A stretch of DNA of 59,874 nt from the NCBI GenBank assembly GCA_030651035.1, contig JAUSCK010000076.1, forward strand, positions 1-59,874, given 5' to 3'. Source of the DNA: Elusimicrobiota bacterium. Its GTDB lineage: Bacteria; Elusimicrobiota; Elusimicrobia; Elusimicrobiales; UBA9959. A model generated the notes under the pieces. It saw only the letters and a list, made by a program, of their open reading frames with translations. It searched no databases and was not told the DNA's origin. Every line of letters starts with the position of its first letter. The stretch's first letter is position 1. Positions 4,764-32,531 of this stretch are shown in pieces. The position numbers and the translations under genes were made by a program.

Positions 4764-4765
4764 CG

Positions 4766-5620: not shown

Positions 5621-5626
5621 CTCGTA

Positions 5627-7318: not shown

Positions 7319-7529
7319 TGTTCCTCCTGCATAACACTTTGCCGCAAAACCAGCCAACCTGTAGAAAAAGCGGTCGAATATCAGGGAAGCCCTCTAACCA
7401 TCTATATTACTTTTCCCCTGCTTGGTCAATAGCTATCTAAAAAGGGCTTTATTTCCAGTCTAATGCGTCCAGGCTAGGCGTATTTCTCCAGTCAAAACGT
7501 CTTGCTATTAACAATGACTAGACCACTTA

Positions 7530-8813: not shown

Positions 8814-8903
8814 GCCGCAATCCCCCAGTCCTGTATACCACTCTATTGTACCCTTTTCTTTTATTTTCAGAACGCTAAAGCCTGTGCGTCTTTGCAGGCC
8901 TCC

Positions 8904-9842: not shown

Positions 9843-9888
9843 ACGTTAAATCCTATACAATACAGATTCCGCCTTATGAATTCTTTTA

Positions 9889-10770: not shown

Positions 10771-10795
10771 TGATGCCTCGCGTTTATGTTGCTTG

Positions 10796-11446
10796 TTATA
10801 ATGGACCACCCGATTGCCGCGCCAGGCGCCGCACCAGCATGGTGATCTTTCTCGCCGCGAAGGCGCCGGCAATGGCGGCGAGCCGGCCCGTGTCCAGCGA
10901 AGACAGCTGTTGCGCGTCCAGGCGCAGATCTTCGGTCAGGTAGGCGTTAAATTCCTTGTGGCTGGCCGGACTAAAGCGCTTGTCCGTCCACACCTTGTCC
11001 ACAAGCGCCTTCTCGGGCGAGGCCATCAGCCACCGGGCATCGCCTTCGCCCGACCAACGGATGCCGGGCGCATAGCGTCGCGGCGGAAAGTGCCGGTAGG
11101 TGAACACCCCGAACGGCGTGTTGAACCGCCGGCTCCCGCCTGTGGTGACCGACGTCACGTTCTCCACGCGCTCCGGTAGCATTCCGTAGTGGCTCAAGGC
11201 ATAGTCGAGGCTGACATACGAGGGGCCGTAGATCAGATTGGCCAGAAGTTCGCGGCTAAGCGGGGCGCGGCGGTAGCGCTCGCCTAACACGTAGAGCCCC
11301 TTGCGCACACGGATCAAACTGCCGTCGGCCAACAGCCTGCCGATACGATCCCTCGGCTTGGCATAGCCATGCAGATAGGACACCAGTTGCTGGTAGTCCA
11401 GCACATCTGTGCGCGCCTGTTCACGGATGTCCATTATTGTAATCAC
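10796..11446 (-). CDS. abiEi: AbiEi-type antitoxin / transcriptional regulator
   Basis: N-terminal wHTH-like segment (LIRVRKGLY), then YGPSYVSLDYALSHYGMLPE and ASPEKALVD. Directly upstream of abiEii. Start is GTG 11446 or ATG 11434. Confidence 0.85.
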   Translation of the reverse strand: MITIMDIREQARTDVLDYQQLVSYLHGYAKPRDRIGRLLADGSLIRVRKGLYVLGERYRRAPLSRELLANLIYGPSYVSLDYALSHYGMLPERVENVTSVTTGGSRRFNTPFGVFTYRHFPPRRYAPGIRWSGEGDARWLMASPEKALVDKVWTDKRFSPASHKEFNAYLTEDLRLDAQQLSSLDTGRLAAIAGAFAARKITMLVRRLARQSGGPL

Positions 11447-18194: not shown

Positions 18195-19637
18195 ATGAGG
18201 CGTCCCGAAGTACTCCTTTTCAAGAGCCGCAGCCTGGCCTCCAAGGTGACGGGAAGCACCCCGCCGCTGGGGCTGCTTTATATAGCCGCCGCCCTGCGCG
18301 AACGGCTGAACGCCGGCGTCCGCGTGATAGACGCCAACCTCGAAGCCGATCCGCTGAAAGCCCTGAGGGACGCCGTACGCTCGGCCAGGCCCGACGTGGT
18401 GGGCATAAGCGCGCTGACCGCCGAGGCTTTCCTCGCCCACGCCGCCGCGGCCGCCGTAAAAGCCGAAAGCCCCGGCACGCCGGTGGTGATGGGCGGCCCG
18501 CACCCGTCTTCCGACCCCGACCTCGCGCTGAAAGACCCCAACATCGACGCGGCCGTCATAGGCGAGGGAGAGGACACTTTCACCGAGCTGGCCCGGCTTA
18601 TAGCTGAGGAGGGCCCCGGCTGGAAAAAGCCGGAGCTCCTGCGCGCCGTGGACGGCCTGGCCTACGCGGCCGAGGGTAAAACCTGGGCCTCAAAACCCCG
18701 CGCGCCCATAGAGGACCTGGACGCCCTGCCTTTCCCGGCGTGGGACCTCATAGATTACAAGCGCTACTGGACGCGCGGCAGCATGGCCAGCGCGGGCATC
18801 CGGCCCTACCTCACGATGTTCACCTCGCGCGGCTGCCCCTACCGCTGCGTCTACTGCCACCAGCTCTTCGGCAAGACCTTCCGCGCCCGCTCCCCCGAAA
18901 GCGTGGCCGAAGAAACGGCGAGGCTGATGAAGATGGGCGCCGGCGACATAGAGATACTCGACGACATAGCCAATTTCAAGCAGGACCGCTTCGACCGGAT
19001 CCTGGAGCTGCTGCTGGAGCGCGGCCTGCACCCGGCCCTGAGCTTTCCCAACGCCATCCGCGCCGACCTCATGCAGGAGCATTCCATCGACCTCCTGAAG
19101 CGGGTGGGCGTCGGCGAGGTCTCGGTGGCGGTGGAGACCGCGTCCGGGCGCCTCCAGGCGCTGCTGGGGAAGAACCTCTCGCTGGAAAAAGTGACCCGCA
19201 CCATAAACCTGCTGGCCGACAGGCGCATCTTCACCCGCGGCTTCTTCATGCTGGGTTTCCCCACCGAGACGGAGGAGGAACTGCGCTCCACCATCAGCTT
19301 CGCGCACTCCTCGCGCCTGCACCTGGCCCTTTTCTTCACCCCGAACCCCTTCCGCAATACCGGGCTTTACGACATGTTCGCCAAAGCCGGCAAGCTCCCC
19401 AAAGACGCCGGCACGATAGACTACGAGTATTACGGCTCGCCGTTCAACGCCAGCGAAGTCCCGGACGCCAGGTACCGCCTGCTTTACCGCTGGGCCTATT
19501 ACGGCTTTTATTTAAACCCGCTGCGCGCCCTGCGCATAGCGCGCGACAGGCCCTCTGTGGCGGATATCCCCGTGCGGGCCTGGAAACTGCTGCGCAACGT
19601 CGTCTCCTTCCGCCGCCTGAAGGAGACCGCCGCATGA
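18195..19637 (+). CDS. B12-binding radical SAM protein 1
   Basis: N-terminal cobalamin-binding domain (PPLGLLYIAA...VMGGPHP...GEGE) and SRGCPYRCVYC (CxxxCxxC). Confidence 0.93.
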   Translation: MRRPEVLLFKSRSLASKVTGSTPPLGLLYIAAALRERLNAGVRVIDANLEADPLKALRDAVRSARPDVVGISALTAEAFLAHAAAAAVKAESPGTPVVMGGPHPSSDPDLALKDPNIDAAVIGEGEDTFTELARLIAEEGPGWKKPELLRAVDGLAYAAEGKTWASKPRAPIEDLDALPFPAWDLIDYKRYWTRGSMASAGIRPYLTMFTSRGCPYRCVYCHQLFGKTFRARSPESVAEETARLMKMGAGDIEILDDIANFKQDRFDRILELLLERGLHPALSFPNAIRADLMQEHSIDLLKRVGVGEVSVAVETASGRLQALLGKNLSLEKVTRTINLLADRRIFTRGFFMLGFPTETEEELRSTISFAHSSRLHLALFFTPNPFRNTGLYDMFAKAGKLPKDAGTIDYEYYGSPFNASEVPDARYRLLYRWAYYGFYLNPLRALRIARDRPSVADIPVRAWKLLRNVVSFRRLKETAA

Positions 19638-21166
19638 AAGTCCTGATGCTCACGCCGCAGCCCCTTTATAGGCGCTGGCCCACCACGCCCGACACCACCA
19701 AGATGGTGACCAATGCCGCCCCGGTCACCATGCCGCAGCTGGCTGCGGCGCTGAAGGGTCACGAGGTGCGCATCCTCGACGGGAACGTTTACGACATACC
19801 GCTTAAAGAGTACGCGGCCCTTATACGCTGGGCCGACGTAGTGGGGATGAACGTGATGTGCTCTTACGCCGCACTGAACACCGAATTAAATCTACGCTTC
19901 ATTAAGAAGCTCAGACCCGGCCTGCCCGTGGTCATGGGCGGCCACCACCCGACTTTCCAGGACGCCGAGTGGCTGGAGCGCGGGGCCGACGCCGTAGTCC
20001 GCCGCGAGGGCGAAATTACCTTCCCGGAGCTGGTGGACGCCCTGGGCGGCAAGCGCGATATCGCCGGCGTGGCCGGCGTCTCCTGGCGTGACCGGGACGG
20101 CGGTATACACCGCAACCAGGACCGCCCTTTCATAAAAGACCTGGACTCGCTGCCGCTGCCGCGCTGGGATTTGGTGGATTTTTCCGGCTACTACCTTTAT
20201 TTCCGCAAGCCGGGCCGCTCGGCCTGCGTCGAGACCGGCCGCGGCTGCGAACAGCACTGCGCCTTCTGTCAGGTGGGGCCCATGTGGAACAATACCCACC
20301 GCTTCAAATCCCCCGAGCGGGTGCTAGAGGAGATGCGCCTGCTGAAGAAGCACGACGTGACCCAGGTCTTCATCGTCGACGACAACTACGGCTCCACCCT
20401 GGACACAGCGCGACAGGCCAGGGTTTACGAGGGGATGCGCAGGGAAAACTTCAACTTCGACTGGGGCGGCTTTTTCCGGCACGACTACATTCACGCCAAT
20501 CACGGCCTGCTGAAGGAGGCCGCCGCCGCCGGCCTGAAATTCGCCTGCGTCGGCTTCGAGAGCGTCGAGACAGCGGACATGAAGCAGTTCAACAAGGGCA
20601 ATGCCGCTTTCAACGGCGCGCCTTCCTACGAGGAGGAATACCGCTTCCTGAAGAGCGCCGGAATAGCGGTGTTCGGCTTCATGGTGATAGGCTACCCCGG
20701 GCAGAGCCAGGCCGCGGCCATGCAGACCATAGAGAACGCCCACCGTTTCTGCGACTACCCCGTAGTCACCGTGTATAAACCCCTGCCGGGCACCGCCGGC
20801 TACCGCAAAACGAAGCAGGACGGGCTGCTGGCCAAGGAAATGTTCTACCACGACTCCTTCACCGTGGCGGTGCGCGGCACCAGGCCCATACTGGCCGCCT
20901 ATAATAAATTTTTCGTGCGCTACCTCGCCAACCCGGTAAGGCTGCTGCGCAACCTCCTCGACCCGAAGCTGCGAGCGGTGGAGACGTCCATAATCACCTG
21001 GTTCGCACTGGGCCTGGCCCGGGCCAACCGGCAGAACCTGGCCGACTTCTTCTGGTTCCTCTTCAAGGGCCGCAAGAGCGGTGAAGAAGAAGTTATAGAG
21101 CATTTGCGGAAAAAATATCTCTCCGAGGAAAATATCGGGCGCCTGGCGCGCAAGGCAAATTTATGA
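19634..21166 (+). CDS. B12-binding radical SAM protein 2
   Basis: True start ATG 19634 overlaps the previous stop (ATGA). MGGHHPT, REGE and GRGCEQHCAFC motifs. The 18740 start in the ORF track is a GC-rich extension. Confidence 0.92.
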   Translation: MKVLMLTPQPLYRRWPTTPDTTKMVTNAAPVTMPQLAAALKGHEVRILDGNVYDIPLKEYAALIRWADVVGMNVMCSYAALNTELNLRFIKKLRPGLPVVMGGHHPTFQDAEWLERGADAVVRREGEITFPELVDALGGKRDIAGVAGVSWRDRDGGIHRNQDRPFIKDLDSLPLPRWDLVDFSGYYLYFRKPGRSACVETGRGCEQHCAFCQVGPMWNNTHRFKSPERVLEEMRLLKKHDVTQVFIVDDNYGSTLDTARQARVYEGMRRENFNFDWGGFFRHDYIHANHGLLKEAAAAGLKFACVGFESVETADMKQFNKGNAAFNGAPSYEEEYRFLKSAGIAVFGFMVIGYPGQSQAAAMQTIENAHRFCDYPVVTVYKPLPGTAGYRKTKQDGLLAKEMFYHDSFTVAVRGTRPILAAYNKFFVRYLANPVRLLRNLLDPKLRAVETSIITWFALGLARANRQNLADFFWFLFKGRKSGEEEVIEHLRKKYLSEENIGRLARKANL

Positions 21167-22701
21167 ACCTGCTTCTGACCACCCCGCTGCGTCTCGTACC
21201 CCGCTTCATGTCGGCCAACGATTTCCCCATGGTCTGGGGCCCTCACCCGCCAATCACCCTCGTGCAGCTGGCCGCGATGGCCGGGCCTTCCTGGAAAGTC
21301 CGCGTACTCGACCCCATCGCCTCGCCTGTAAGCCTCGCCGATTTCGGGCGGTGGATCGCGGAGGCCGATGCCCTGGGCGTCACCTGCTCCGCCTCGCAGC
21401 TGGCTCTGAACGCGGAAATAACCATAAAGCTGGCCCGCCGGCTCAGGCCCGACCTCCCCATTATCATGGGCGGCCACCACCCATCTTTTTATCCTGAGGA
21501 GTGGCTGTCGCGCGGCGCTTCCGTCATAGTCCGCGGCGAAGGGGAGCAGACCATCGCCGAGCTGCTGGAAAGGATCGAAAAGAAGCGGGGGTATCACGGT
21601 GTCGACGGAATATCCTTCCTCGAAGGCGGCAAGGTGGTGCGGACTCCGGACAGGAAGCCGGTGCATGACCTCGACGCCCTGCCTTTCCCCCGCTGGGACC
21701 TGATGGATTTGCGCGGCTACCGGCAGTTCACGCGCCGCGGCGGCCTCACCGTTTCGATGGAAACCTCGCGCGGCTGCACCAACAGCTGCTCTTTCTGCCT
21801 GGCCTCGCGCATGTGGGACGGCAAGCAGCGCTACCGTTCCATCCCGAACGTCATAGAGGACCTGAAACGGCTGCAGGCCATGGGCGCTGACCAGCTGCTT
21901 TTCGTAGGCGACGGCTTCGGCAACCCGACGGACTACCACTCGGAGCTCATGCGCGAGATGATAAAAGCCGGCATAGACATGCACTGGATGTCCTTCATGC
22001 GCGTGGACTCCATATTAAATGATCCCGGCCTGCCGGAGCTCATGGCCCGCTCGGGCTGCAAATCGGTGTTCGTCGGGTTCGAATCCCCGCGGCAGGAGCT
22101 GCTTAAGAGCTGGAAGAAAGGCCCCTCCGGAGCCGCCGACGTCTCGAAGTACCCAGAAGTGTTCCGGCTTCTGGACCAGGCCGGGATCCTGGTCTTCGGT
22201 TTCCTGCTGGTGGGCCATCCCGACGAGCGGCCGGAGGACATCCCGGAGACTATGCGGCTTAACCGGCAGTGGTGCGATATCCCGCTGGTAAACGCGCTGC
22301 AGCCCATGAAAGGTACCCCTGATTACGAGGACTACGAACGGCGGGGAATACTGGCCAAGAACATGTTCTATCACGACGTGCGCATCCCGAGCCTGAAAGG
22401 CGTAGAGAAGCACGTCCCGATAGCCATGCGTATTTTCCTGCTCCAGATACTCTTCGAGTTTCCGTTCCAGCTCTTTTCTGCGAAGGAAACCAAGCGCCGG
22501 TTCATCCGGCATATGTACAGCTTCCTCGCCAGGGAGTTCCTGGCCGCTTCTCTGGACGGCATACTGGACTACCTGATGCTGCTGAACTTCAAGGGACTAA
22601 GCCCGGCCGAGCTGCAGGACACTATTGTCCGGAAGCATACTACCGGGAAGAGGCTGGACGCCCTGGCGCGGCGCGCCGGCTGGAAGCCGGACCGTCAATA
22701 A
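21163..22701 (+). CDS. B12-binding radical SAM protein 3
   Basis: ATGA overlap with the previous gene; MGGHHPS, RGEGE and SRGCTNSCSFC motifs. Confidence 0.92.
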   Translation: MNLLLTTPLRLVPRFMSANDFPMVWGPHPPITLVQLAAMAGPSWKVRVLDPIASPVSLADFGRWIAEADALGVTCSASQLALNAEITIKLARRLRPDLPIIMGGHHPSFYPEEWLSRGASVIVRGEGEQTIAELLERIEKKRGYHGVDGISFLEGGKVVRTPDRKPVHDLDALPFPRWDLMDLRGYRQFTRRGGLTVSMETSRGCTNSCSFCLASRMWDGKQRYRSIPNVIEDLKRLQAMGADQLLFVGDGFGNPTDYHSELMREMIKAGIDMHWMSFMRVDSILNDPGLPELMARSGCKSVFVGFESPRQELLKSWKKGPSGAADVSKYPEVFRLLDQAGILVFGFLLVGHPDERPEDIPETMRLNRQWCDIPLVNALQPMKGTPDYEDYERRGILAKNMFYHDVRIPSLKGVEKHVPIAMRIFLLQILFEFPFQLFSAKETKRRFIRHMYSFLAREFLAASLDGILDYLMLLNFKGLSPAELQDTIVRKHTTGKRLDALARRAGWKPDRQ

Positions 22702-24182
22702 AGCTCGTTCCCCCGCCGTCCTACAGGGTCGCAGCCGAAAAGGGCCTCGAGCCTGTCCGGCATCTTTTCTGAAAGGATAGCAAGCACCGCCATCGCCAGC
22801 TTTATCTTCTCCTCGAATAACCTGCAGCTCCTGGCGTGCGGCCTGGAAATATCCCCGTTGAAATAATGGTTTATATTGAGGCAGGAGCCGGTGGTCCCGC
22901 AGACGCTGAAGATGCGGCAGCTGGCGCATTCCCTGAATCTTTTTTCTGTTTTCTTCAGCAGGGAGAGATATTTTTCCCTGTTCACCCCGGAGCGCACGTT
23001 CCCAAGAGAAAAGGCTTTTATCCCTATAAAGGAAGTGCAGGGGAATATTTCCCCATCGGACGAAACGGCGATCTGCCCCTGTGCCGCGGGGCATCCGCCT
23101 ATAACCTGGTTGTTGTAATACAGCCTCTGCATCAGCTTAAAGAATCTGTTGAAGAATGTTTTCCCGTAATCGAGGGCGCCGCTGACGGCCTCTTCCGAGT
23201 ATTTTCCGGCCAGCAGCTCATATTCCCTGAACATCCTGCGAAAATCCTGTTCCTTCTGAAAAAAAACAGACTCCCTTTCCGGGGTTATCCTGTGACACGC
23301 ATCTTCTGTTTCAAATATTTCCACGCGCTCGAAGCCCATGCTTTTCAGATTATTATAAAGCGCGACCATGTCCGTGTAATACGGCGTGACGGTCGTTCTG
23401 CCTACAAGCCTCCGCCTCGTTGCCGGGCGCATTTTCCCCAGATTTTCAGCTATAGCGGCGAAGCTGCCTTTACCGTCGTGAAAAGGCCTGTTCCGATCGT
23501 GAATCCTCCCGGGGCCGTCCACGCTTACCGCTATCTGCACACCGAAGCCAAGAAGCTTCTCAGCCAGCTCCGGGGTCAGAAGTGTCCCGTTCGTGGCGAG
23601 TAAAAAATGGAACCTTATTTTTTTCTTCTTTTCCAGCGCCTTGCAGTATTCCACCGTGCCGAGAAGGGCAGGAAGGTTTTTAAGGGGTTCTCCGCCGTAG
23701 AAATCCACCACCAGCTGTTTTTCCCCCTGGCTCATTTCAACCAGCAGGTCTACGGCCCGCGCAGCCGTTTCCACGGACATCGGCGGGAGACAGTCGGCTT
23801 CAGCTCCGGGGGCGGTCTTTTTTTTCTCAAAACCTTCGTTTGAATATTTACCGGTATCGTTCCAGCAGTAAATGCAGCGAAGGTTGCAGTCGGAGGTTAT
23901 ATTCAGCGTCAGGTCGGTCAGCCTGGCCGAGGCTTCCGGGACTTCCGGTTTTGTGGTACGGAGCGGGAACAGCGCGGAAATCTCCGCAGGGATGGAAAGC
24001 CTCCGGGCGAGCTTTTCCGCCGCCGCCGCTGAAACTTTCCCGTTCCGTTTTTTTATCTCGTAATTCCACTTTTTAAGGGAATTAAAAACCCCGGTGGGCA
24101 GTTCGTAGAAATCTCCGGTTCCTGTCGAGACGCCTATGCTACGCCCTAATTTTTTAAAAAGATAAGCCGGCTCTTGTTTCAT
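22695..24182 (-). CDS. Radical SAM/SPASM peptide maturase (SCIFF/CteB-like architecture)
   Basis: LTLNITSDCNLRCIYC, DFYGGEPL, TNGTLL, SVDG. Seven-Cys SPASM motif C-x12-G-x4-C...C-x2-C-x5-C-x5-C-x18-C. N-terminal RRE-like segment. RBS GAGGAG at 24192-24187. Confidence 0.92.
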   Translation of the reverse strand: MKQEPAYLFKKLGRSIGVSTGTGDFYELPTGVFNSLKKWNYEIKKRNGKVSAAAAEKLARRLSIPAEISALFPLRTTKPEVPEASARLTDLTLNITSDCNLRCIYCWNDTGKYSNEGFEKKKTAPGAEADCLPPMSVETAARAVDLLVEMSQGEKQLVVDFYGGEPLKNLPALLGTVEYCKALEKKKKIRFHFLLATNGTLLTPELAEKLLGFGVQIAVSVDGPGRIHDRNRPFHDGKGSFAAIAENLGKMRPATRRRLVGRTTVTPYYTDMVALYNNLKSMGFERVEIFETEDACHRITPERESVFFQKEQDFRRMFREYELLAGKYSEEAVSGALDYGKTFFNRFFKLMQRLYYNNQVIGGCPAAQGQIAVSSDGEIFPCTSFIGIKAFSLGNVRSGVNREKYLSLLKKTEKRFRECASCRIFSVCGTTGSCLNINHYFNGDISRPHARSCRLFEEKIKLAMAVLAILSEKMPDRLEALFGCDPVGRRGNELY

Positions 24183-24199
24183 AAGTCTCCTCGCATAAA

Positions 24200-24229
24200 G
24201 CGAAAGTCCCCGCGTTGCGGGGACTTCGC
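24200..24229 (-). terminator. Stem-loop between the putative precursor peptide and the SPASM gene
   Basis: AAGTCCCCGC-GTT-GCGGGGACTT (10-bp perfect stem, extendable to 13 bp with one bulge). On the minus strand it is followed only by TTTAT, so termination is probably leaky. Confidence 0.6.
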
Positions 24230-24250
24230 CGATTCAATATTTAATCGGTT

Positions 24251-24361
24251 TTACCAAAGAACCCTGCCGGAACGGCAGTACCGCGATAGTTTCTTCTCTG
24301 TTTTCCCGGTTTTGTTTAGTTTTTTAACTGTCTTCACTATCGGCTTTGTGATTGTGGGCAT
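24251..24361 (-). CDS. Putative RiPP precursor peptide, 36 aa: MPTITKPIVKTVKKLNKTGKTEKKLSRYCRSGRVLW
   Basis: Translated by hand (below the ORF-track cutoff). ATG 24361, TAA 24253-24251, GGAGG at 24370-24366, near-consensus promoter upstream. Lies 68 nt upstream of the SPASM maturase on the same strand. Confidence 0.8.
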   Translation of the reverse strand: MPTITKPIVKTVKKLNKTGKTEKKLSRYCRSGRVLW

Positions 24362-24391
24362 TTTGCCTCCATATAGCGTACTGTTAGTAAT

Positions 24392-24420
24392 AGTATAAGA
24401 CATAATCCGGCGGATGTCAA
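24392..24420 (-). promoter_or_regulatory. Near-consensus sigma70 promoter for the precursor peptide-SPASM transcript
   Basis: Minus strand reads TTGACA (24420-24415), 17 nt, TATACT (24397-24392). Confidence 0.75.
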
Positions 24421-24538
24421 TACGTAGTTTTCTCTGGCCTTTATTTTCAATAATATCGGGCGTTTACCCTAATCGGATAAGCCGCCGCCTCCCGATAAAA
24501 GCGGTTTAACCAAGCCTCAAACCCGAAAGAGCACAAAT

Positions 24539-24558
24539 TGATATAATCATACATATCA
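24539..24558 (+). promoter_or_regulatory. Extended -10 promoter for the downstream radical SAM operon, overlapped by a short inverted repeat
   Basis: TG-A-TATAAT at 24539-24547; TGATAT-N8-ATATCA at 24539-24558. Confidence 0.5.
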
Positions 24559-24616
24559 GCCTTTCCTAAACATAGCACGCGGGCTTCAATTTTTTCGCGG
24601 TGGACGGAGAAACAAC

Positions 24617-26077
24617 ATGAAAATATTATTTTTAGAACCTCTCCATATATTCTGGGAGTTTTTCAGGGGCCTGACGCCCTCGCATTCCCTCATCTACCTC
24701 GCCGCGGTAGCGCGCCGGGAATTCGAGGTAAAAGTCTTCGACGCATGCATGGAAAAGGAAAACCCCTGGGACAAAACGGCCGAATACCTGGAAAAAGAGC
24801 GCCCCGAGATCGTCGCCATAACGGGCTCGATAACGGGATTCTGGCCCGATACGCTGAACTGCGCGAAGCTGGTCCGCGAAATACTGCCTAAAGCCCGGAT
24901 TATAACCGGCGGCTACACAGCTTCGGTATTCTGGGCGGACGCCCTGAGGGACGGGGCCGCTGACTACGTGGTCCTGGGCGAAGGTGAACTTACGCTGATG
25001 GAGCTTTTGAGGGCGCTGAAAGAGAATAAAACGGATTTTTCCGGCATACTCGGCCTGGCTTACCTTAAGGACGGCGCGCCGGTGAAAAACGCGCCGAGGC
25101 CGTTAATGCAGAACCTCGACGAACTGCCCCCGCCCGCTTACGACCTGTTTCCCATGGAGCATTACGGGCTGGCGCCGTTCGGCGGCAAAGCGGGTTTTAC
25201 CGTAACCTTTGCGAGGGGTTGTCAGCACACCTGCGTGTTCTGCTCCGAAACTGTTTTATGGCGGCACACCTGGCGCGGACATACCCCGCAATACATGGTG
25301 GACACTCTTGAAGTTTTAAATAAAAAATACGGCAAAAGGATATTTTACGTAGGTGACAACGATTTTCTGCACGACGAGGAGCGGACCAAAGCCTTCATCG
25401 CGCTGATGCGTGAAAGACGGCTCGACGTGAAAATGTGGATACAGACCACCTGCGCCAACCTCATTAAAAACGAAAAGCATCTCAAGAATCTCAGGGAAAT
25501 CGGCGTTTACCAGGTAATGTTGGGGATCGAGACCAACAACCCCGAGGGGCTCAAGCGCCTCAACAAGCCTCAGACGCTGGAAACCGTAAACAAGGCGGTC
25601 GCCATCGCGAACACCCACGATTTCATCGTGATGGGGATGCTCATGTGGGGCGCCCCTTGGGACACAAAAGCCGGCCTGCATGACACGTTCAAATTCCTCT
25701 CTGAAAATTGCGACATAATCGGGCCCGATTTCACGACCCCGTGGCCCGGAACGCCTTATTACGCGGAATGCGAAAAGGCGGGCGCGATCGAGGTCCGCGA
25801 CCTTTCCAAATACAATATGATGAACTGCATTACCCGCACCGCCGAGCTTTCGGCTGCGGAATCCGACGCCTATTACAAGAGCGTGGTCGGCAAAGCGCTG
25901 ATCTTCAACAAGAAATCCCTGTATAATTTCTTCTTCTCAAGCAAACTCCTTTACCGCACCTACTTCATGATGTTCGTAAAGATGGGCTGGAGTTTTGTAA
26001 CAGGGAAGCCCTGGCGCCAGAAAAATTACCAGAGTTTCGAGGATTTTATCAGCAAGAGGCGCGGGGTCGCGCGTTAA
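24617..26077 (+). CDS. B12-binding radical SAM protein 4
   Basis: HSLIYLAA, IITGGYTA, GEGE and ARGCQHTCVFC motifs; GGAG RBS. Confidence 0.92.
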   Translation: MKILFLEPLHIFWEFFRGLTPSHSLIYLAAVARREFEVKVFDACMEKENPWDKTAEYLEKERPEIVAITGSITGFWPDTLNCAKLVREILPKARIITGGYTASVFWADALRDGAADYVVLGEGELTLMELLRALKENKTDFSGILGLAYLKDGAPVKNAPRPLMQNLDELPPPAYDLFPMEHYGLAPFGGKAGFTVTFARGCQHTCVFCSETVLWRHTWRGHTPQYMVDTLEVLNKKYGKRIFYVGDNDFLHDEERTKAFIALMRERRLDVKMWIQTTCANLIKNEKHLKNLREIGVYQVMLGIETNNPEGLKRLNKPQTLETVNKAVAIANTHDFIVMGMLMWGAPWDTKAGLHDTFKFLSENCDIIGPDFTTPWPGTPYYAECEKAGAIEVRDLSKYNMMNCITRTAELSAAESDAYYKSVVGKALIFNKKSLYNFFFSSKLLYRTYFMMFVKMGWSFVTGKPWRQKNYQSFEDFISKRRGVAR

Positions 26078-26105
26078 ACCACGGCGCACCGCGGAGAAAG
26101 TGAAT

Positions 26106-26654
26106 ATGCTAAAAATTCCGGACCTGATGAACAAGATCTTCACCCGCAGAAGAATTCTCACGGCGATATCTCTGCTGCCGCTTGCTGTTTTCCTCAAGGT
26201 CGCGCGTCACTACGGCCTCACGGAGGACGCCTGGATGAGGGCCTTCCTGGCCGGCGCGGCCCTCTCCGCCGCCCTCATGGCGGTTTTCGCGGCCATCAGG
26301 GTTCCGCTCAGGGATATCCTGCTCGCCCTGGGGCTGCTGTTCATTTCAGGCGCGGCGGCCTTCCTGGCTGACCTCAGGCCGGTGCTGGCCGTGTATGAGC
26401 GGTTCCAGGGTTCGGTCTTCCTTGTCTGGTATCTACTGGTCAGGGCCGTTTTTTATTTCGCGCCCGAACTGCTCTCCGTTTTTGCTTTCGACCCGTATGA
26501 GAGGGCCCCCGGGCTGGCCGCGGCTCTCACGGCTGGCGTCTTCGTGTGGTCTCTTTTCCACAGGGACATCCTGGTTTCCACAGTCCTGCCGATGACTCTG
26601 ATGATGATCCTGCTTTCCCTGGCCGGGCGCGCCCCCTCTTCGGAAGGCGGATAG
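26106..26654 (+). CDS. Integral membrane protein of unknown function
   Basis: About five to six hydrophobic segments; operonic between rSAM 4 and the FAD oxidoreductase. ATG 26106 preferred over GTG 26100 on SD spacing. Confidence 0.7.
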   Translation: MLKIPDLMNKIFTRRRILTAISLLPLAVFLKVARHYGLTEDAWMRAFLAGAALSAALMAVFAAIRVPLRDILLALGLLFISGAAAFLADLRPVLAVYERFQGSVFLVWYLLVRAVFYFAPELLSVFAFDPYERAPGLAAALTAGVFVWSLFHRDILVSTVLPMTLMMILLSLAGRAPSSEGG

Positions 26655-26661
26655 GCCCGGC

Positions 26662-28218
26662 ATGAAAAAAGTCCCCGGACAATATGACGCGGTGATAATA
26701 GGCGCGGGGCCCGGAGGCCTTTCCGCCGGGCTTTCGCTCGTCCGCAGGGGCTGGAAAGTCCTGATAGCCGAAAAGAACGGGGTCCCCGGAGGGAACTGCA
26801 CTTCCCGCAAGGTGGGCGGCTACACTTTCGACCTGGCGGTGCACCAGCTTTCGGGTATAGGCGGGGGCGGCATCTGCGCCGGCATCCTGCGTGAATACGG
26901 CTTGTCCGATAAGATGGAATTCAGGCAGGTAGACCCTTTCCTGGTGGTGGATATGCCGGACCGTTCCTATACGCTGCGCGGCAGCCGGAATGAGTTCCGG
27001 GACGAACTGCTTAAAGATTTCCCCGGGGAAAAGAAAGATATAGACCTCATGCTGTCCGGGCTGGATTCCCTCAAGAAGGACGCGCTGCTGGCCCAGCGCC
27101 TGCTTCACGGCGGTGACCCGGCAGTGAATGGAATGATCGCCAAAACGGTGGACTGGCTGAAGATAGCGACCTTCCCGTTCACATTCCTATGGGGTTTGGT
27201 TTCAGGAATACCGTTCAGCGCCGATGCCATGCTGCGGCGCTGGGTAAGCAACGAGAAGCTGCGCGCGGTAGTGCACGCCTCCTGGGTGTACCTTGGCCTT
27301 CCTCCTAAGCGTATTTCCGGGGTGATGATGGATGTTTTCCTGGCCATGCAGCACATGGAACATACCTACTACCCGGTGGGGAGCTCTCAAAAATTGGCGG
27401 ACATAATGGCGGAAGCCTTCCGCGCGAACGGAGGGGAGTTGCTGCTTAACTCCCCGGTCAGGAAAATCCTAACGGAAAAGGGGCGCGCCTGCGGCGTGGA
27501 GCTGGCCGGCGGCCGGACGGCCAGCGCGGGGATAGTTATTTCCAACGCCGACGCGCTCCACACCTACCGGCAGCTGCTGGAGCCGGGAGCGGCCCCGGCG
27601 GGATTTATGCCGCGGCTTGAACGGATGAAACTCTCCATGGGTCCCTTCCGCGTCTGCCTCGGCCTGGACTACGACGTAGCCGCGCACGGGATGGACCACC
27701 ACGAGTACATGATCTTCCCTGGTTATGACCATGAGGCGGCGTACGGCGCAATGGAGCGTGGTGAACCCGTCGCCATGAGCGTCTATTCGCCCACAAAAAT
27801 ATGTCCGGAGCTGGCTCCGCCCGGCCACAGTACGCTTATACTGACCACGATGCTTCCATGGCGGCCGGAAAAGGACTGGCGCGGGCGCACCGAAGCGCTG
27901 GCGGCGGAAATGATAGCGCTGGCGGAGAAAAAAAGGTTGCCGGGCCTGGCGCGGCATATAGTGGTAAAACAGATACTGACGCCTGAGGGTCTGCGGGACC
28001 TGACCAACACCGCCGAGGGCTCCATGTACGGCTGGGCTAATACCCCCGAACAGACGCTCTCATTGCGCCTCTCCATGAAGTCGCCTGTGCCGGGCCTCTA
28101 TCATACGGGACACTGGACCAGACCAGGGACCGGTGTGACCACCGCCATTCTTTCAGGCTGGATGCTCGGCAACAGGCTTAACAGCCTGGTCGGAAAGATT
28201 TTTGATAAGCTGTTTTAA
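26662..28218 (+). CDS. FAD-dependent oxidoreductase, phytoene desaturase (COG1233) family
   Basis: IIGAGPGGL, EKNGVPGG, GYTFDLAVH, YPVGSSQKLA, VISNAD, TPEGL...GSMYG and PGLYHTGHWTRPGTGVT motifs. Confidence 0.88.
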   Translation: MKKVPGQYDAVIIGAGPGGLSAGLSLVRRGWKVLIAEKNGVPGGNCTSRKVGGYTFDLAVHQLSGIGGGGICAGILREYGLSDKMEFRQVDPFLVVDMPDRSYTLRGSRNEFRDELLKDFPGEKKDIDLMLSGLDSLKKDALLAQRLLHGGDPAVNGMIAKTVDWLKIATFPFTFLWGLVSGIPFSADAMLRRWVSNEKLRAVVHASWVYLGLPPKRISGVMMDVFLAMQHMEHTYYPVGSSQKLADIMAEAFRANGGELLLNSPVRKILTEKGRACGVELAGGRTASAGIVISNADALHTYRQLLEPGAAPAGFMPRLERMKLSMGPFRVCLGLDYDVAAHGMDHHEYMIFPGYDHEAAYGAMERGEPVAMSVYSPTKICPELAPPGHSTLILTTMLPWRPEKDWRGRTEALAAEMIALAEKKRLPGLARHIVVKQILTPEGLRDLTNTAEGSMYGWANTPEQTLSLRLSMKSPVPGLYHTGHWTRPGTGVTTAILSGWMLGNRLNSLVGKIFDKLF

Positions 28219-28224
28219 CCGCAC

Positions 28225-29643
28225 ATGGCAAAGATCCTCCTGACCAATCCGCCCTGGCAATCTTTCCACACCCTGCAGGTGCTGTTCCCCAATATCCCGC
28301 CGCTGGGACTGCAGATAGTGGCCGGTGTGCTGCGCGCAGCGGGGCACGAGGCTTTGGTGGCCGACGTGCAGCATCTGCGCCCTCTGCACCCTGAATTTAT
28401 AAAGGCGATAGAGGAATTCAAGCCGGACATAATAGGCTTCTCCAATTCGGAACTGCCCAATGCGCCGATGGTGGTGAAGGTGGCGCGTGAAGTGAAGCGC
28501 CGCTACCCCGGGGTGAAGCTGCTGGCCGGCGGACAGGCGCCGAGCTTCCGCCCCGAACTTTTCCTCGGGCCGGCCGGGCCTTTCGACGCGGTGGCGCTCT
28601 ATGAGGCCGAGAGCACGGTGGTACGCATAGTTGACGCGCTGGCCTCAGGCGCCCCGCTGGACAATCTGCCGGGCTGCGCCTGGTGCGCGCCGGACGGATG
28701 CCTCAGGCGTTCCGCCGAGGAGCGCGTGATCTGCGACCTGGATACCCAGCCGATGCCTTACTGGGAGGGCTCGCTGAAGAAATCCGCTTTCTCCGACGGG
28801 CTGTTCGCCGCCCTGGAAACTTCGCGGGGCTGCCCCTTCCGCTGCGCCTTCTGCTCCGTACCAGGCTATTACGGCGCGCCGCGCTACAAGTCGGCCGCGC
28901 GCATACTCGGGGAGCTGCGCAGGCTGAAGGCGCTGGGCGTGGCTGAATTCTCGATAAACGACGATTCTTTCGCCACCCGCCCGCAGGTAGTGCTGGAGAT
29001 CTTCGAGACCATGCTGCGCGAGCGCATGAATTTGCGCTTCGGCGTGCAGATAAGGGCCGACATCATCGTCGCCCACCCGGCCCTGATCGAGTTGGGCGCG
29101 CGTGCGGGTATGTTCATGGCCGTAGTCGGGTTCGAGGGCTACACTTCCGCCGTGCAGGAGGAGTCCAACAAAGGCAACTCCGCGGCGATAAACCGGGAGG
29201 CGTCACGGATACTGCGCCGCAACGGCGTAGCCGTATACGGCACGCACGTGTTCGGCGGGCCGCAGAGCGGGCTCAAGGACAGCCTGGCGACTTTTCTTTA
29301 CGGCCGCCTCAACTCAGATATATTCCGCATGACCATTTATACACCTGTACCGGGGTCCCGGCTCTACGATGACCTGGCTGATTCCTCACAACTGACTTCA
29401 GAGAACCCGGCTGATTTTTACGAGGGGAAATATCTCATAAAGGGCGCGCATAACCCCCTGGTGATACAGTTGAGCTATTACTTCCTGCTCGCGCTGCACT
29501 ACGCCCTGCCGGACACGCTTTTCAAGCTCTTCCACCCTGACGAAGTCATACGCTGCTTCATGCGGCGGGCCTACTGCGGGGCCGTATATTTCGTGCTGGG
29601 CCAGGCCAGCTCCCTTTTCAAAAGGGGGTCTAGATCCGCTTGA
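28225..29643 (+). CDS. B12-binding radical SAM protein 5
   Basis: PPLGLQIVAG, LAGGQAPS, YEAE and SRGCPFRCAFC motifs. Confidence 0.92.
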   Translation: MAKILLTNPPWQSFHTLQVLFPNIPPLGLQIVAGVLRAAGHEALVADVQHLRPLHPEFIKAIEEFKPDIIGFSNSELPNAPMVVKVAREVKRRYPGVKLLAGGQAPSFRPELFLGPAGPFDAVALYEAESTVVRIVDALASGAPLDNLPGCAWCAPDGCLRRSAEERVICDLDTQPMPYWEGSLKKSAFSDGLFAALETSRGCPFRCAFCSVPGYYGAPRYKSAARILGELRRLKALGVAEFSINDDSFATRPQVVLEIFETMLRERMNLRFGVQIRADIIVAHPALIELGARAGMFMAVVGFEGYTSAVQEESNKGNSAAINREASRILRRNGVAVYGTHVFGGPQSGLKDSLATFLYGRLNSDIFRMTIYTPVPGSRLYDDLADSSQLTSENPADFYEGKYLIKGAHNPLVIQLSYYFLLALHYALPDTLFKLFHPDEVIRCFMRRAYCGAVYFVLGQASSLFKRGSRSA

Positions 29644-31076
29644 AGCGCCCCTCCGTACTTCTCATTAAAAGCCGCAGCGTGGTGTCCAAGATAAAGGGCA
29701 CTACGCCGCCGCTCGGCATACTTTACATAGCCGCCTGCCTGCGCCAGCGCCTGGGCGCCGAAGTGCGCGTCGTGGACGCAATGTTCGAACCGGACGCCGC
29801 CGCGACCGTGCTTGCGGCGCTGCGCGAGCAGCAGCCCGACGTGGTCGGCATAAGCGCGCTGACCGCCGAATCTTTCCTGGCACACAAGCTGGCCTCCGCC
29901 GTTAAGGGAGCCAGCCCCGGCACACCGGTGGTGATGGGCGGGCCGCACCCGACCTCCGACCCGGATAGCGCGCTCTCGGACTCTAATGTGGACGCGGTCG
30001 TGATGGGAGAAGGCGAGGAAACTTTCACCGAACTTGTACGCGTGATAGCTGAAGAAGGCCCGCGCTGGCGCGAACCGGCAACGCTGCGGGCAGTGGACGG
30101 GATCGCCTTCAGCCATGAGGGCAAGACCGAGCTTACCAGACACCGCGCCCCTATAACGGACCTTGATTCCCTTCCGTTCCCGGCCTGGGACCTGATCGAC
30201 TATAAAAAGTTCTGGAAGGCCGGCGGCATGGCCACGGTAGGCGTAAGGCCCTACCTCCCCATTTTCACCTCCCGCGGCTGCCCGTACCACTGTGTGTTCT
30301 GCCACCAGATCTTCGGCAAAGCGTTCCGCGCCCGCTCGCCGGAGAACGTGGCTGACGAAGTGGCGCAGATACACAAGCTGGGCACCAGGAACATCGAGGT
30401 ACTGGATGATATTTCCAATTTCGACCCGGATCGTTTCGACCGCATGCTGGAACTATTGCTTGAGCGGGAGCTGCGGTCGGTGCTGAGCTTCCCTAACGCC
30501 ATACGCGCGGACCTTATCCGCGAATCCTCCATCGACCTGCTGAAGCGGGTGGGCGCCGGCGAAGTGTCGGTGGCCGTGGAAACAGCCTCGGAGCGCCTCC
30601 AGAAACTGCTAAAAAAGAACCTCTCCCTCGACAAGGTCAGCCGCACTATAGACATGCTGGCGAACAGGCGTATTTTTACCCGCGGTTTCTTCATGCTTGG
30701 CCTGCCTACGGAAACCGAGGAGGAGCTGCGCGCCACTATACGGTTCGCGCACGCCTCGCGCCTGCACCTCGCGCTCTTCTTTAACCCCAACCCGTTCCAC
30801 AATACCGAGATGTACGAGATGTTCAAGAAGGCCGGCAAGCTGCGCTCCGACGTCAGCACGATAGATTTTGAATATTTCGGGGCGCCTTTCAACGCCAGCG
30901 ACATGCCCGACAGCACCTACCGCATGCTTTACAGGTGGGCTTATTACGGATTTTACCTGAACCCCGCCCGGGCTTACCGCATAGCCCGGGACGGGCCTTT
31001 CGGCTGGGACATACCCGCGCGCGTCTACGGGCTGTTCCGCAACTACACGTCTTTCCGCCGCCTCAAGGAGAGTTGA
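29640..31076 (+). CDS. B12-binding radical SAM protein 6 (paralog of 18195-19637)
   Basis: PPLGILYIAA, MGGPHP and SRGCPYHCVFC motifs. 27 of the first 38 residues are identical to protein 1. Confidence 0.93.
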   Translation: MKRPSVLLIKSRSVVSKIKGTTPPLGILYIAACLRQRLGAEVRVVDAMFEPDAAATVLAALREQQPDVVGISALTAESFLAHKLASAVKGASPGTPVVMGGPHPTSDPDSALSDSNVDAVVMGEGEETFTELVRVIAEEGPRWREPATLRAVDGIAFSHEGKTELTRHRAPITDLDSLPFPAWDLIDYKKFWKAGGMATVGVRPYLPIFTSRGCPYHCVFCHQIFGKAFRARSPENVADEVAQIHKLGTRNIEVLDDISNFDPDRFDRMLELLLERELRSVLSFPNAIRADLIRESSIDLLKRVGAGEVSVAVETASERLQKLLKKNLSLDKVSRTIDMLANRRIFTRGFFMLGLPTETEEELRATIRFAHASRLHLALFFNPNPFHNTEMYEMFKKAGKLRSDVSTIDFEYFGAPFNASDMPDSTYRMLYRWAYYGFYLNPARAYRIARDGPFGWDIPARVYGLFRNYTSFRRLKES

Positions 31077-32509
31077 TGAAAAAGATCCTTATGCTCCAGC
31101 CGCTGCGCGTTTACAGGCGCTGGCCCATGCCGGACGATTTCACCGGGCTGCTGGGAAATTCCCCCACGCTGGCCTTCGCCCAGTTAAGGGGCACGCTCAG
31201 GAACTACGAGTCTGAATTCATGGACGGGCTGGCCGGGAACTTCACTCTCGGTGAACTGACCCGCCGGGCGCAATCGGCCGACGTCGTGATGCTGAACGCG
31301 CATTCCAGCATAGGCGCGCTCAACGTCGAGTTCAACCTGCGCCATATCCTGGACACGGCGCCCGGCAAGCCCGTGATCCTGGGCGGCCACCACGCTACCG
31401 CCTACGATTTCGAATGGCTCGGCCGCGGGGCTCATTTCGTGGTGCGCAACGAGGGCGAGGAAACCATAGACGAGCTCATGGCCGCCATAGAGAAGGGCGG
31501 GCCTTACGGCGGGATCGCCGGGCTTTCCTGGCGCGACGCCGAACGGAATTTCCACCGCAACCCGGCCAGGCCGCTGATCTCCGACCTCGACAGCCTGCCC
31601 ATGCCGGACTGGAAGATCTACGACCCCTCGCTCTATTACCTGCCCCTCGCCATCCCCGGCTATTCCACCACGGCCGAAACCTCGCGCGGCTGCATGCACC
31701 GCTGCCGCTTCTGCGCGGCCAGCGAGATGTGGGGGCACACCCAGCGCTTCAAGAGCCCCGAGCGCGTGCTCGAGGAGCTGCGCGCCGTGCGCAAGCTGGG
31801 CTTCACCAAGATCTGGTTCTCCGACGACAACTTCGGGGCCGAGCCCGAGCGCTACACGAAGATCTACGAGGGGATGATCCGCGAGAACCTGGGCCTGCGC
31901 TTCGCCAGCTTCCTGCGCTGCGACACCGTGACCCGCTCCCCCGAGACGATGAAGCTGGCCTACAGGGCCGGCATGCGCGGGGCGCTGCTGGGCATAGAGA
32001 GCCCGGTGAACCGCATCCTGAAGGATTTCGCCAAGGCCAACGACCATGAGACCACCGTGAAAGCGGTGGAGGTCCTGCGCGGAGCCGGGATCTTCATAGC
32101 GGGCTTCATGATAGTGGGCTACCTGGACGAAACCCAGGCGGAGACCGAGGCGACCTTCAGGGCGGCCGACGAGCTGACCGACTATCCCATCATCTCTATT
32201 TTCGAGCCCCGCATGGGCACGGCCGATTTTACGCGCGCCACCGCGAAACTGGACCTGCCGGGCGGGGACATGTTCTACCACAACACGGTGAAGTTCATCC
32301 CGAGTAAGGCTAGCACCATCAACGATTACAGGGATTTTTACCGCGGGTACATGACGAGCCCCAAGCAGCTGAGGAAGGCGCTGTTCGGAACCCCGGTCCA
32401 GCGGGACTGGTACCGCACTTTGTACCTGAATATGGCGAAATCGGTACTGTCCGTCACTCCCACCAAGGCGGCCCATCCGTGGGAGATGGTTCGCGCCATC
32501 TACCGCTGA
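31076..32509 (+). CDS. B12-binding radical SAM protein 7 (paralog of 19634-21166)
   Basis: Start ATG 31076 overlaps the previous stop (TGATG). N-terminus MKKILMLQPLRVYRRWP resembles protein 2 (MKVLMLTPQPLYRRWP). LGGHHAT and SRGCMHRCRFC motifs. Confidence 0.92.
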   Translation: MKKILMLQPLRVYRRWPMPDDFTGLLGNSPTLAFAQLRGTLRNYESEFMDGLAGNFTLGELTRRAQSADVVMLNAHSSIGALNVEFNLRHILDTAPGKPVILGGHHATAYDFEWLGRGAHFVVRNEGEETIDELMAAIEKGGPYGGIAGLSWRDAERNFHRNPARPLISDLDSLPMPDWKIYDPSLYYLPLAIPGYSTTAETSRGCMHRCRFCAASEMWGHTQRFKSPERVLEELRAVRKLGFTKIWFSDDNFGAEPERYTKIYEGMIRENLGLRFASFLRCDTVTRSPETMKLAYRAGMRGALLGIESPVNRILKDFAKANDHETTVKAVEVLRGAGIFIAGFMIVGYLDETQAETEATFRAADELTDYPIISIFEPRMGTADFTRATAKLDLPGGDMFYHNTVKFIPSKASTINDYRDFYRGYMTSPKQLRKALFGTPVQRDWYRTLYLNMAKSVLSVTPTKAAHPWEMVRAIYR

Positions 32510-32531
32510 CAGCGCCTCCCGCATAGGAGAA

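Follow-up and report, generated by a model that had tools for sequence, protein, structure and literature searches.

Radical-SAM/SPASM peptide maturases are a main source of new cross-link chemistry. In the stretch of DNA analysed here (the window, 59,874 nt of an Elusimicrobiota contig), the gene of one such enzyme lies next to a very basic, unannotated open reading frame of 36 aa with a single Cys. Is this peptide the substrate of the enzyme and, if so, to which residue would its Cys be joined? The locus offers a small and defined case, with one enzyme, a 26–36-residue substrate, one reactive Cys and five invariant partner residues. Its features are collected in Table 1.

Table 1. Features of the cassette and its surroundings in the window.
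Feature	Position	Strand	Basis
Candidate B12-binding radical SAM genes (19748–21166 and 21163–22701), convergent with the maturase gene, alternative partners	19748..22701	+	tree
Radical SAM/SPASM maturase, CteB-like (RRE + rSAM + SPASM), 495 aa	22695..24182	−	ORF, HMM, alignment, structure comparison
SPASM domain, seven invariant Cys (C364, C382, C419, C422, C428, C434, C453)	22824..23093	−	Pfam, alignments
Radical-SAM cluster motif C99-x3-C103-x2-C106	23865..23888	−	invariant in both homologue alignments
N-terminal RRE-like domain, about residues 1–85, conserved GDFYEL motif	23928..24182	−	AF2 model, Foldseek
GC-rich hairpin GAAGTCCCCGC-AAC-GCGGGGACTTC between the peptide and enzyme genes	24204..24226	−	folding of spacer
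Precursor peptide gene, 36 aa + stop, MPTITKPIVKTVKKLNKTGKTEKKLSRYCRSGRVLW	24251..24361	−	RBS, homologue length, conservation
Invariant core Y28-C29-R-S-G-R33-V34-L35-W36, ending at the C-terminus	24254..24280	−	comparison of 43 peptides
GGAGG ribosome-binding site, 4 nt ahead of the peptide ATG	24366..24370	−	sequence motif
Sigma-70-like promoter TTGACA-17-TATACT, 11/12 matches, overlapping the ATG of the 50-aa ORF	24392..24420	−	sequence motif
Divergent B12-binding radical SAM gene, candidate second tailoring enzyme	24617..26077	+	lower-GC patch, orthologue in L016

A longer ORF of 50 aa (24251–24403, minus strand) was rejected as the precursor because its start falls inside the TTGACA-17-TATACT promoter. 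The start of the 36-aa gene (24361) follows a GGAGG sequence, as is the case for almost all homologous peptide genes, and both its length and its N-terminus agree with those of the homologues, which measure 26–53 aa. The true precursor gene is the 36-aa ORF 24361–24251 of the minus strand.

Comparison of 43 peptides showed that C29, R33, V34, L35 and W36 are identical in all of them, and that position 28 is aromatic (Y or F), invariant or nearly so. The leader is Lys-rich and variable in length, with a conserved h-N-K motif exactly 13 residues N-terminal to the Cys. In none of the 43 peptides was an Asp or Glu found C-terminal to the Cys. Across the 13 core codons of 32 DNA versions, 3098 third-position differences were counted versus 31 at second positions; the core is under protein-level selection and its variation is almost solely synonymous.

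Of 42 related loci whose flanks could be seen, 41 have a small ORF ending in [Y/F]C-x3-RVLW no more than about 200 nt from the enzyme gene. This ORF generally lies upstream on the same strand, and in five loci it is convergent and just downstream. In L017, peptide and enzyme share one frame and are separated by a single TAA stop; in an AF2 model of the read-through fusion (62 sequences) the enzyme was confident and the peptide low, SRYCR only reaching a pLDDT of at least 50. The core pattern occurs once in the six frames of the 4.47-Mb genome, a motif scan of which returned no additional peptide copy. Taken with the adjacency in 41 of the 42 loci, this single occurrence is not due to chance. 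Peptide and maturase are a genuine, previously undescribed modified-peptide system, in which, from the sequence comparisons, the 36-aa peptide is very probably the precursor for the adjacent maturase. The first-pass annotation had paired the enzyme with a one-Cys peptide free of downstream Asp/Glu. With adjacency and selection on the core, this pairing stands, and the peptide features recur in the 43 sequences except for two Cys in a sister clade; the boundaries had to be redrawn, to 36 aa instead of 50.

No significant NCBIfam or Pfam family match was obtained for the peptide (searched to E 10), full-text literature gave no match to CRSGRVLW, and a literature search found neither Omnitrophota nor Elusimicrobia mentioned in such a context in ranthipeptide papers. 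We rejected the idea that the core motif is the tail of a larger protein, since a peptide profile found four matches only among 1.84 billion representative proteins, all of 30–59 aa. A housekeeping or ribosomal-like small protein was likewise discarded, the cassette being too rare: one of the 151 genomes examined from Elusimicrobiota, to which the window belongs, and 7 of the 251 Omnitrophota genomes encode the enzyme.

Cassette-bearing genomes are labelled Omnitrophota, Elusimicrobiota and other phyla. In the window, the cassette sits in a lower-GC patch (GC 0.537 versus 0.60–0.66 in neighbours). Our best explanation includes a cassette that would be rare, compact and horizontally spread. Enzyme identity drops to 36–57% across the family while the peptide core stays invariant. 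No recognisable partner peptide was found for the distant enzyme relatives L061–L065 (28–34% identity). When ORFs around 46 loci were clustered, no conserved protease, transporter or chaperone emerged near the cassette, the sole widely recurring neighbours being B12-binding radical SAM genes. Since no protease or exporter travels with the cassette, the product may keep its basic leader or use general machinery.

The 71-nt spacer between the peptide and enzyme genes folds with an MFE of −28 kcal/mol (z −4.7). Its hairpin is kept in loci L015 and L016, and clear terminators were observed downstream of the peptide in L020, L051, L054 and L057. The hairpin could possibly act as an attenuator. An Rfam search of the window gave no match. 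The window sequence was detected solely in its own source groundwater metagenome, and three sediment metatranscriptomes of the L017 study contained nothing on the locus.

The maturase ORF carries MSVETAARAVDLL and VDFYGGEPL, and Pfam models for Radical_SAM (PF04055, 56.9 bits, cutoff 29.5), Fer4_12 and SPASM (PF13186, 22.6 bits, cutoff 21.5) all matched above threshold. The CX3CX2C motif and the seven SPASM Cys are invariant across 14 to 62 homologues, and the latter map one-to-one onto the seven of CteB. With this arrangement, as reported by Grove et al. in 2017, auxiliary cluster I is left free to take up a substrate Cys. In an AF2 model of the L017 orthologue, the N-terminus forms three beta-strands followed by helices with high pLDDT; G23 and F25 of this region are invariant in the homologue alignment. 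The model supports an RRE-like (winged helix) domain. By Foldseek, the maturase model aligns over its full length with CteB, which is also the closest PDB entry (sequence E 1.5e-41; target-normalised TM 0.84). The final SPASM spacing is C-x5-C (C428-GTTGS-C434), whereas the CteB equivalent is C-x3-C. This spacing is kept family-wide while the first one alternates between C-x2-C and C-x3-C, giving the pattern C-x2/3-C-x5-C-x5-C. Both the CteB/SCIFF layout and the atypical last spacing noted at first reading were thus borne out.

Among curated NCBIfam models, the best matches of the maturase were PapB (NF047865, 228.5 bits, cutoff 340), nif11 (217 bits), QhpD (TIGR03906, 191 bits, cutoff 453) and the SCIFF maturase (TIGR03974, 180 bits, cutoff 425). 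Other family members scored 229–258 bits with PapB, QhpD scores ranged over 191–238 bits across the family, and relatives scored 180–252 bits with the SCIFF model. PapB, SCIFF, QhpD, nif11 and CcpM were the top matches for main-clade, sister-clade and intermediate enzymes alike. Every curated cutoff was missed, and any function is therefore extrapolated. A placement among sulfatase maturases, which the first-pass annotation had named as an outcome against its proposal, was not observed: the anSME model TIGR03942 gave 70 bits (cutoff 349) versus 228 for PapB. By sequence, the maturase is classed as a CteB/PapB/QhpD-like enzyme, nearest to thioether formers.

In a sister clade, of which L051 is an example, the peptide core has two Cys (FCRCGRVLW) and the SPASM loop of the enzymes has an extra Cys. 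Two-Cys peptides (CRCG) go with the enzyme loop C.GCGSC, and one-Cys peptides with C.[TS]TGSC or CLGSGSC. The number of Cys in the peptide thus appears, from the aligned sequences, to covary with that in the SPASM loop of the enzyme. Neither this clade nor the B12-radical-SAM partner had been picked up in the first-pass annotation.

The cassette was repeatedly found amid neighbourhoods rich in B12-binding radical SAM genes, in the window and in Omnitrophota. One lineage of about 520 aa (74–83% identity) lies directly downstream of it in 12 of 38 loci. In the sample of 251 Omnitrophota genomes, this partner lineage was present in 7 of 7 maturase-positive versus 1 of 244 maturase-negative genomes (Fisher p 7e-13, a value that ignores kinship among genomes). 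A B12-radical-SAM gene within 8 kb was missing at about half of the loci. The peptide is probably tailored further by a B12-dependent radical SAM enzyme, C-methylation being the simplest option, and in the genome of the window the partner is probably one of the flanking paralogues. One candidate (24617–26077) lies in the same lower-GC patch as the cassette, has a 67% orthologue in the equivalent position in L016 and is the top match of the genome to the Omnitrophota partner, at just 32%. We did not retain it as an orthologue of that partner, as the tree gave no support: its branch is long and its placement not settled. The genome has no true orthologue of the Omnitrophota partner, and the tree leaves open which local paralogue, if any, takes its place. 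The pair 19748–22701 is placed as sister to the Omnitrophota partner clade, on long branches and with moderate support (91/85).

Taken as a whole, we find it rather likely that the locus is a RiPP cassette whose product would be a thioether macrocycle tailored by a B12-radical-SAM enzyme. For the chemistry taken by itself, the most likely outcome would be one thioether linking the Cys to the RVLW tail, and we put the chances of thioether chemistry at about even. An ordinary Cys thioether is the first choice because the Cys is invariant and the enzyme homologous to thioether formers, though the acceptor would be non-acidic. As for the new cross-link chemistry expected in the first-pass annotation, a radical-SAM substrate with one Cys has a precedent in KgrA, described as a single-Cys sactipeptide precursor (PMC10288494). 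The leader would be bound on the RRE domain, and the invariant Cys would bind through its thiolate to auxiliary cluster I, at the coordination site left free there. The 5′-deoxyadenosyl radical, produced when SAM is cleaved, would then take a hydrogen from a residue of the invariant R-V-L-W tail. Arg33 (Cys+4) would fit the spacing known from PapB (C-x3-acceptor), and naming any acceptor is a guess. The product would be one intramolecular thioether macrocycle, which a B12-dependent radical SAM step could modify further, in the simplest case by C-methylation. Against this model counts the lack of Asp, Glu, Asn or Thr after the Cys, unlike in characterised ranthipeptide and SCIFF substrates. PapB may require a carboxylate acceptor.

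The absence of an acidic acceptor for a classical ranthionine would also suit a C-C cross-link of the cyclophane type, in which the ring of Trp36 or of Tyr/Phe28 is joined to an sp3 carbon of Arg33 or Arg30, the Cys serving in metal binding, in recognition or as target of the B12 enzyme. Trp36, Arg33 and the aromatic position 28 are invariant or nearly so, and comparable links are known: Trp-C5 with Arg-C-gamma from WprB, Arg with Tyr from RrrB and Lys with Trp from StrB (PMC11851443). We consider this reading unlikely, as the nearest curated families and the nearest structure all belong to Cys-thioether formers, with YhhB (89 bits), DynA (75) and FxsB (62) scoring well below the 228 bits of PapB. 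Furthermore, no residue outside RVLW is as strictly conserved as the Cys, and a second Cys, where the peptide has one, covaries with a SPASM-loop Cys of the enzyme. That the small ORF is a basic nucleic-acid-binding or regulatory micro-protein, merely co-located with an enzyme acting on something else, is highly improbable. Its N-terminal region resembles H1/Hc1-type Lys/Ala/Pro repeats in L030 and L036, and a weak, non-significant histone-H1-like match was obtained (E 0.32). However, adjacency to the enzyme holds at all but one of the 42 loci in two orientations, the enzyme has a modelled RRE domain, the conserved part is the Cys-containing tail and not the basic region, and the Cys count of the peptide follows the SPASM loop.

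The peptide could alternatively be the precursor of a cofactor or redox mediator, as in the mycofactocin or PQQ routes, its tail being modified, possibly cleaved, and used by, for example, nearby B12-radical-SAM-rich clusters. The constancy of the core at falling enzyme identity would agree with this, as would the lack of an exporter around the loci, the repeated B12-radical-SAM-rich surroundings with their genome-wide co-occurrence, and a Trp that is always the final residue, recalling the tail of MftA, which ends in Val-Tyr. However, the conserved neighbours lend no support to this route, raised in the first-pass annotation: no conserved peptidase, chaperone or dependent oxidoreductase was found near the cassette, and about half of the loci are without a B12-radical-SAM gene inside 8 kb. 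MftC and PqqE are also more distant from the enzyme than the thioether formers are, and neither figures among the 25 NCBIfam matches listed for it. SCIFF peptides are likewise highly conserved and are not known to be cofactors. A cofactor precursor thus seems quite unlikely.

Such a small system, with a natural two-Cys variant that covaries with the enzyme, makes site-of-reaction studies simple, and from its genome-wide tie to one lineage of B12-radical-SAM enzymes a second modification is predicted. That the core never varies in a cassette which is rare, mobile and found in uncultured Omnitrophota and Elusimicrobiota suggests either a cofactor role or a target under strong constraint. The strictly C-terminal Trp, and a core kept constant as enzyme identity goes down to 55%, would be less expected of a typical antibiotic peptide than of a cofactor-like or target-locked molecule. 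More speculatively, and with a small chance only, the tail [Y/F]-C-x3-R-V-L-W-COOH might give an unprecedented product, such as a thioether between the Cys and a carbon of Arg, Val, Leu or Trp, further methylated by a dedicated B12-radical-SAM enzyme, with a cofactor-like or target-locked role. Such a role would explain a core that is unchanging across phylum labels despite a rare and mobile cassette. If the acceptor were indeed Arg, Val, Leu or Trp, the acceptor range of ranthipeptide-type enzymes would be extended.

Among known systems, SCIFF of Clostridia (CteA/CteB, ScfA/ScfB; TIGR03973/TIGR03974) resembles the locus in its two genes, its short and strongly conserved precursor, its maturase with RRE, radical SAM and seven-Cys SPASM domains (CteB being the best PDB match) and the lack of a dedicated protease or exporter. 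Unlike SCIFF, with six Cys in about 45 residues, the peptide has one Cys (two in the sister clade), an extremely basic leader and a core ending in RVLW at the C-terminus. The enzyme also falls below the SCIFF cutoff and differs in its last SPASM spacing, its hosts carry the labels Omnitrophota, Elusimicrobiota and others, and a B12-radical-SAM partner is associated. PapB, the top NCBIfam match, acts on PapA (freyrasin) at repeated C-x3-D motifs with a carboxylate acceptor. Cys29-Arg33 fits this spacing, whereas the enzyme scores below the PapB cutoff and the peptide has a single C-R-S-G-R motif with Arg at the acceptor position. QhpD, which matures the gamma subunit of quinohemoprotein amine dehydrogenase, is likewise a thioether-forming SPASM enzyme. 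Its substrate carries a Cys-Trp-derived cofactor. The score here is below its cutoff, the substrate is a 26–53-aa peptide, and no dehydrogenase subunit gene was found among the recurring neighbours. In mycofactocin biosynthesis, the SPASM enzyme MftC modifies the last residues of the short peptide MftA, which form an invariant aliphatic-aromatic tail. A similar tail ends our peptide; in contrast, its Cys is invariant and MftB/D/E/F-like neighbours were not found. KgrA/KgrC (enteropeptin) provides another radical-SAM-modified peptide with just one Cys, but its enzyme is placed in a sequence-divergent group of sactisynthases (PMC10288494), and the cores are unrelated. Finally, the cyclophane-forming SPASM enzymes WprB, RrrB and StrB crosslink Trp/Tyr and Arg/Lys, residues invariant in the core described here (PMC11851443), yet neither the motifs (WPR, KxxxW) nor the order of residues are those of this core, and the maturase is much nearer to thioether formers.

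Loci encoding related enzymes were fetched from species-representative genomes (78 loci) and scanned in six frames for a peptide gene. Pairing was counted over the 42 loci with an enzyme identity of at least 36% and visible flanks. In 41 of these, a small ORF ending in [YF]C-x3-RVLW-stop was found about 200 nt or less from the enzyme gene, either ahead of it on the same strand or, in five loci, just past it in convergent orientation, and almost all of these ORFs are preceded by a GGAGG-type ribosome-binding site. The exception among main-clade (one-Cys) loci with visible flanks, L022 (8001-9470), has no RVLW peptide in the 17 kb fetched; the gene for it may be at another site in the genome.

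In an alignment of 43 peptides, C29, R33, V34, L35 and W36 (window peptide numbering) are invariant, N16, R30 and G32 nearly so, and the conserved Asn always precedes the Cys by 13 residues. Lengths range from 26 to 53 aa owing to the variable Lys-rich N-terminus. Precursors of 47-53 aa at two loci (L030, 145-303; L036, 7738-7878) carry long N-terminal extensions of AKKK/PAKKK/VKK repeats, akin to histone-H1-like tails, with a single weak, non-significant model match. Across the main clade, the 13-codon core exists in 32 DNA versions, with 3098 differences at third positions, 421 at first (mostly Leu and Arg synonyms) and only 31 at second; this predominance of third-position differences, with few at second positions, reflects selection on the translated product. 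All six frames of the entire 4.47-Mb genome contain the core pattern a single time. A profile search of 1.84 billion representatives returned four proteins only, all of 30-59 aa, so that the core was rejected as the tail of a larger protein. Taken together, these comparisons show, at the level of sequence, a strongly constrained, translated peptide paired with a CteB-type maturase.

Within the window, the sole ORF matching the peptide of the first-pass annotation (24251-24403, 50 aa) was rejected as the peptide gene since its start ATG falls within a promoter. The product from the second ATG is MPTITKPIVKTVKKLNKTGKTEKKLSRYCRSGRVLW (36 aa), and the gene called upstream of an 81%-identical Elusimicrobia enzyme likewise encodes 36 aa. 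A GC-rich hairpin, kept in the two closest loci, separates the peptide and enzyme genes, and clear terminators occupy the corresponding site in several Omnitrophota loci. No Pfam or NCBIfam model matched the peptide, nor did a full-text literature search return anything for its core.

Features of the peptide cassette and its surroundings in the window
Feature	Coordinates	Strand	Remark
Radical SAM/SPASM maturase, 495 aa	22695-24182	-	ORF holds the motifs quoted in the first-pass annotation
Precursor peptide	24251-24361	-	start at 24361, second ATG of the ORF; GGAGG site ahead
Promoter TTGACA-17-TATACT	24420-24392		11/12 positions match
B12-rSAM paralogue 1	18195-19637
B12-rSAM paralogue 2	19748-21166
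B12-rSAM paralogue 3	21163-22701
B12-rSAM paralogue 4 (divergent gene)	24617-26077
184-aa membrane protein	26100-26654		among B12-rSAM paralogues
CrtI-like FAD oxidoreductase	26662-28218		among B12-rSAM paralogues
B12-rSAM paralogue 5	28225-29643
B12-rSAM paralogue 6	29640-31076
B12-rSAM paralogue 7	~31100-32509
B12-rSAM paralogue 8	32532-33899	-
794-aa NACHT-like NTPase; AAA_15/AAA_21 ATPase with DUF3696; DUF1848 protein; AbiEii nucleotidyltransferase	2379-10872	-	defence-like genes

The enzyme proved to be as first annotated, with the expected motifs, Radical_SAM, Fer4_12 and SPASM domains (Pfam search) and a CteB-like seven-Cys SPASM. Its last spacing, C-x5-C, is kept throughout the family, the first being C-x2-C or C-x3-C. 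It scored below every NCBIfam cutoff considered: PapB (228.5 bits; cutoff 340), nif11-type (217; 519), QhpD (191; 453), SCIFF (180; 425) and anaerobic sulfatase maturase (70; 349). As judged by these scores, its nearest NCBIfam kin are thioether-forming SPASM maturases, and the same top matches came up for further members of the family, among them the sister clade and an intermediate form. CteB was the first PDB sequence match (E 1.5e-41), all seven SPASM Cys being aligned. An AF2 model of an Omnitrophota orthologue (pTM 0.84; enzyme portion mostly pLDDT >90) matched CteB from end to end (E 4e-29, TM 0.84 normalised to target), followed by anSME, ChlB, TigE, SuiB and SkfB; in an AF2 read-through fusion, the peptide portion was placed at low confidence.

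Sister-clade enzymes (36-43% identity) are paired with 26-aa two-Cys peptides ending in YRAAFCRCGRVLW or FCGCSRVLW, and their SPASM loop, C-x-G-C-G-S-C, has one extra Cys. The main-clade loop is C-[RG]-[TS]-T-G-S-C, with C-R-S-G in the partner peptides, and the intermediate L058 combines C-L-G-S-G-S-C with a one-Cys peptide. Such covariation, from few independent events, would be expected if the Cys region of the peptide contacts the part of the enzyme around its auxiliary clusters. Both kinds of cassette lie on one Omnitrophota contig (L031, 283-8402), 5 kb apart: the main-clade one has the peptide ...LSRYCRSGRVLW, and next after the sister-clade one, with the peptide ...RAAFCRCGRVLW, comes the conserved B12-binding radical SAM (B12-rSAM) partner.

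The leader would be bound by the RRE domain. According to its structure paper, the seven-Cys arrangement reportedly leaves the auxiliary cluster I site open in CteB, which suggests that the invariant Cys may, by homology, ligate this cluster. Hydrogen abstraction from a residue of the RVLW tail would yield a single thioether ring; Arg33 is a conjectural acceptor, Cys+4 fitting the PapB spacing, and the B12 partner might contribute a methyl group or similar modification. Related enzymes are known to join Trp to Arg, Arg to Tyr and Lys to Trp (PMC11851443), and ranthionines also occur on proteins (PMC13692751). A C-C link at Trp36 or Tyr28 is therefore a real rival to the thioether. A cofactor precursor would also fit the invariant C-terminal tail, the B12-rich context and the failure to find an exporter, but lacks supporting conserved accessory genes; gene clustering around 46 loci revealed no conserved protease, transporter or chaperone.

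The sole recurring neighbour is the partner, a protein of about 520 aa with 74-83% identity across Omnitrophota, whose gene comes immediately after that of the maturase in 12 of 38 loci with enough downstream flank and, when not adjacent, was found elsewhere in the genome. It is part of recurring B12-rSAM-rich neighbourhoods, one of which holds a U32-like protein. Among 251 sampled Omnitrophota it is present in 7/7 maturase-positive versus 1/244 negative genomes (Fisher p 7e-13, ignoring phylogeny). A true orthologue is absent from the window's genome, where the best match (32%) is at 24620-25903. A tree gives full support to the partner clade and moderate support (91/85, long branches) to a sister group that includes the two convergent genes at 19748-22701; it does not resolve the divergent gene.

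More than 100 cluster representatives of the enzyme come chiefly from Omnitrophota and Elusimicrobia metagenome-assembled genomes (taxon labels being the submitters' own); it occurs in 1/151 sampled genomes of the window's phylum. The maturase (GC 0.528), peptide (0.44) and divergent B12-rSAM gene (0.537) form a 3.4-kb patch of lower GC among neighbours at 0.60-0.66. Eight B12-rSAM paralogues lie within 16 kb (18195-33899), with LpxB, an MsbA-like ABC transporter and RelA/SpoT upstream; this cluster may encode a pathway to a lipid or another small molecule, with the peptide cassette inserted in its midst. An 808-aa ORF (18740-21166, +) was rejected as over-extended, B12-binding and Radical_SAM matching only the last ~472 aa (from ~19748). 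The defence-like genes, at GC 0.45-0.52 versus about 0.60 elsewhere, are probably a defence island. At the closest Elusimicrobia locus (L009/L016), an HxsD-family gene overlaps another radical SAM gene about 3-5 kb upstream of the peptide, and a ribonuclease/barstar pair lies downstream.

The first-pass annotation had proposed a maturase paired with a one-Cys substrate and likely new cross-link chemistry. This reading is supported in part: conserved adjacency and core selection uphold the pairing, and the new chemistry is unproven, single-Cys substrates as such having precedent (PMC10288494). The precursor family is undescribed, its maturases are a distinct subfamily, and a B12-rSAM protein is its partner.
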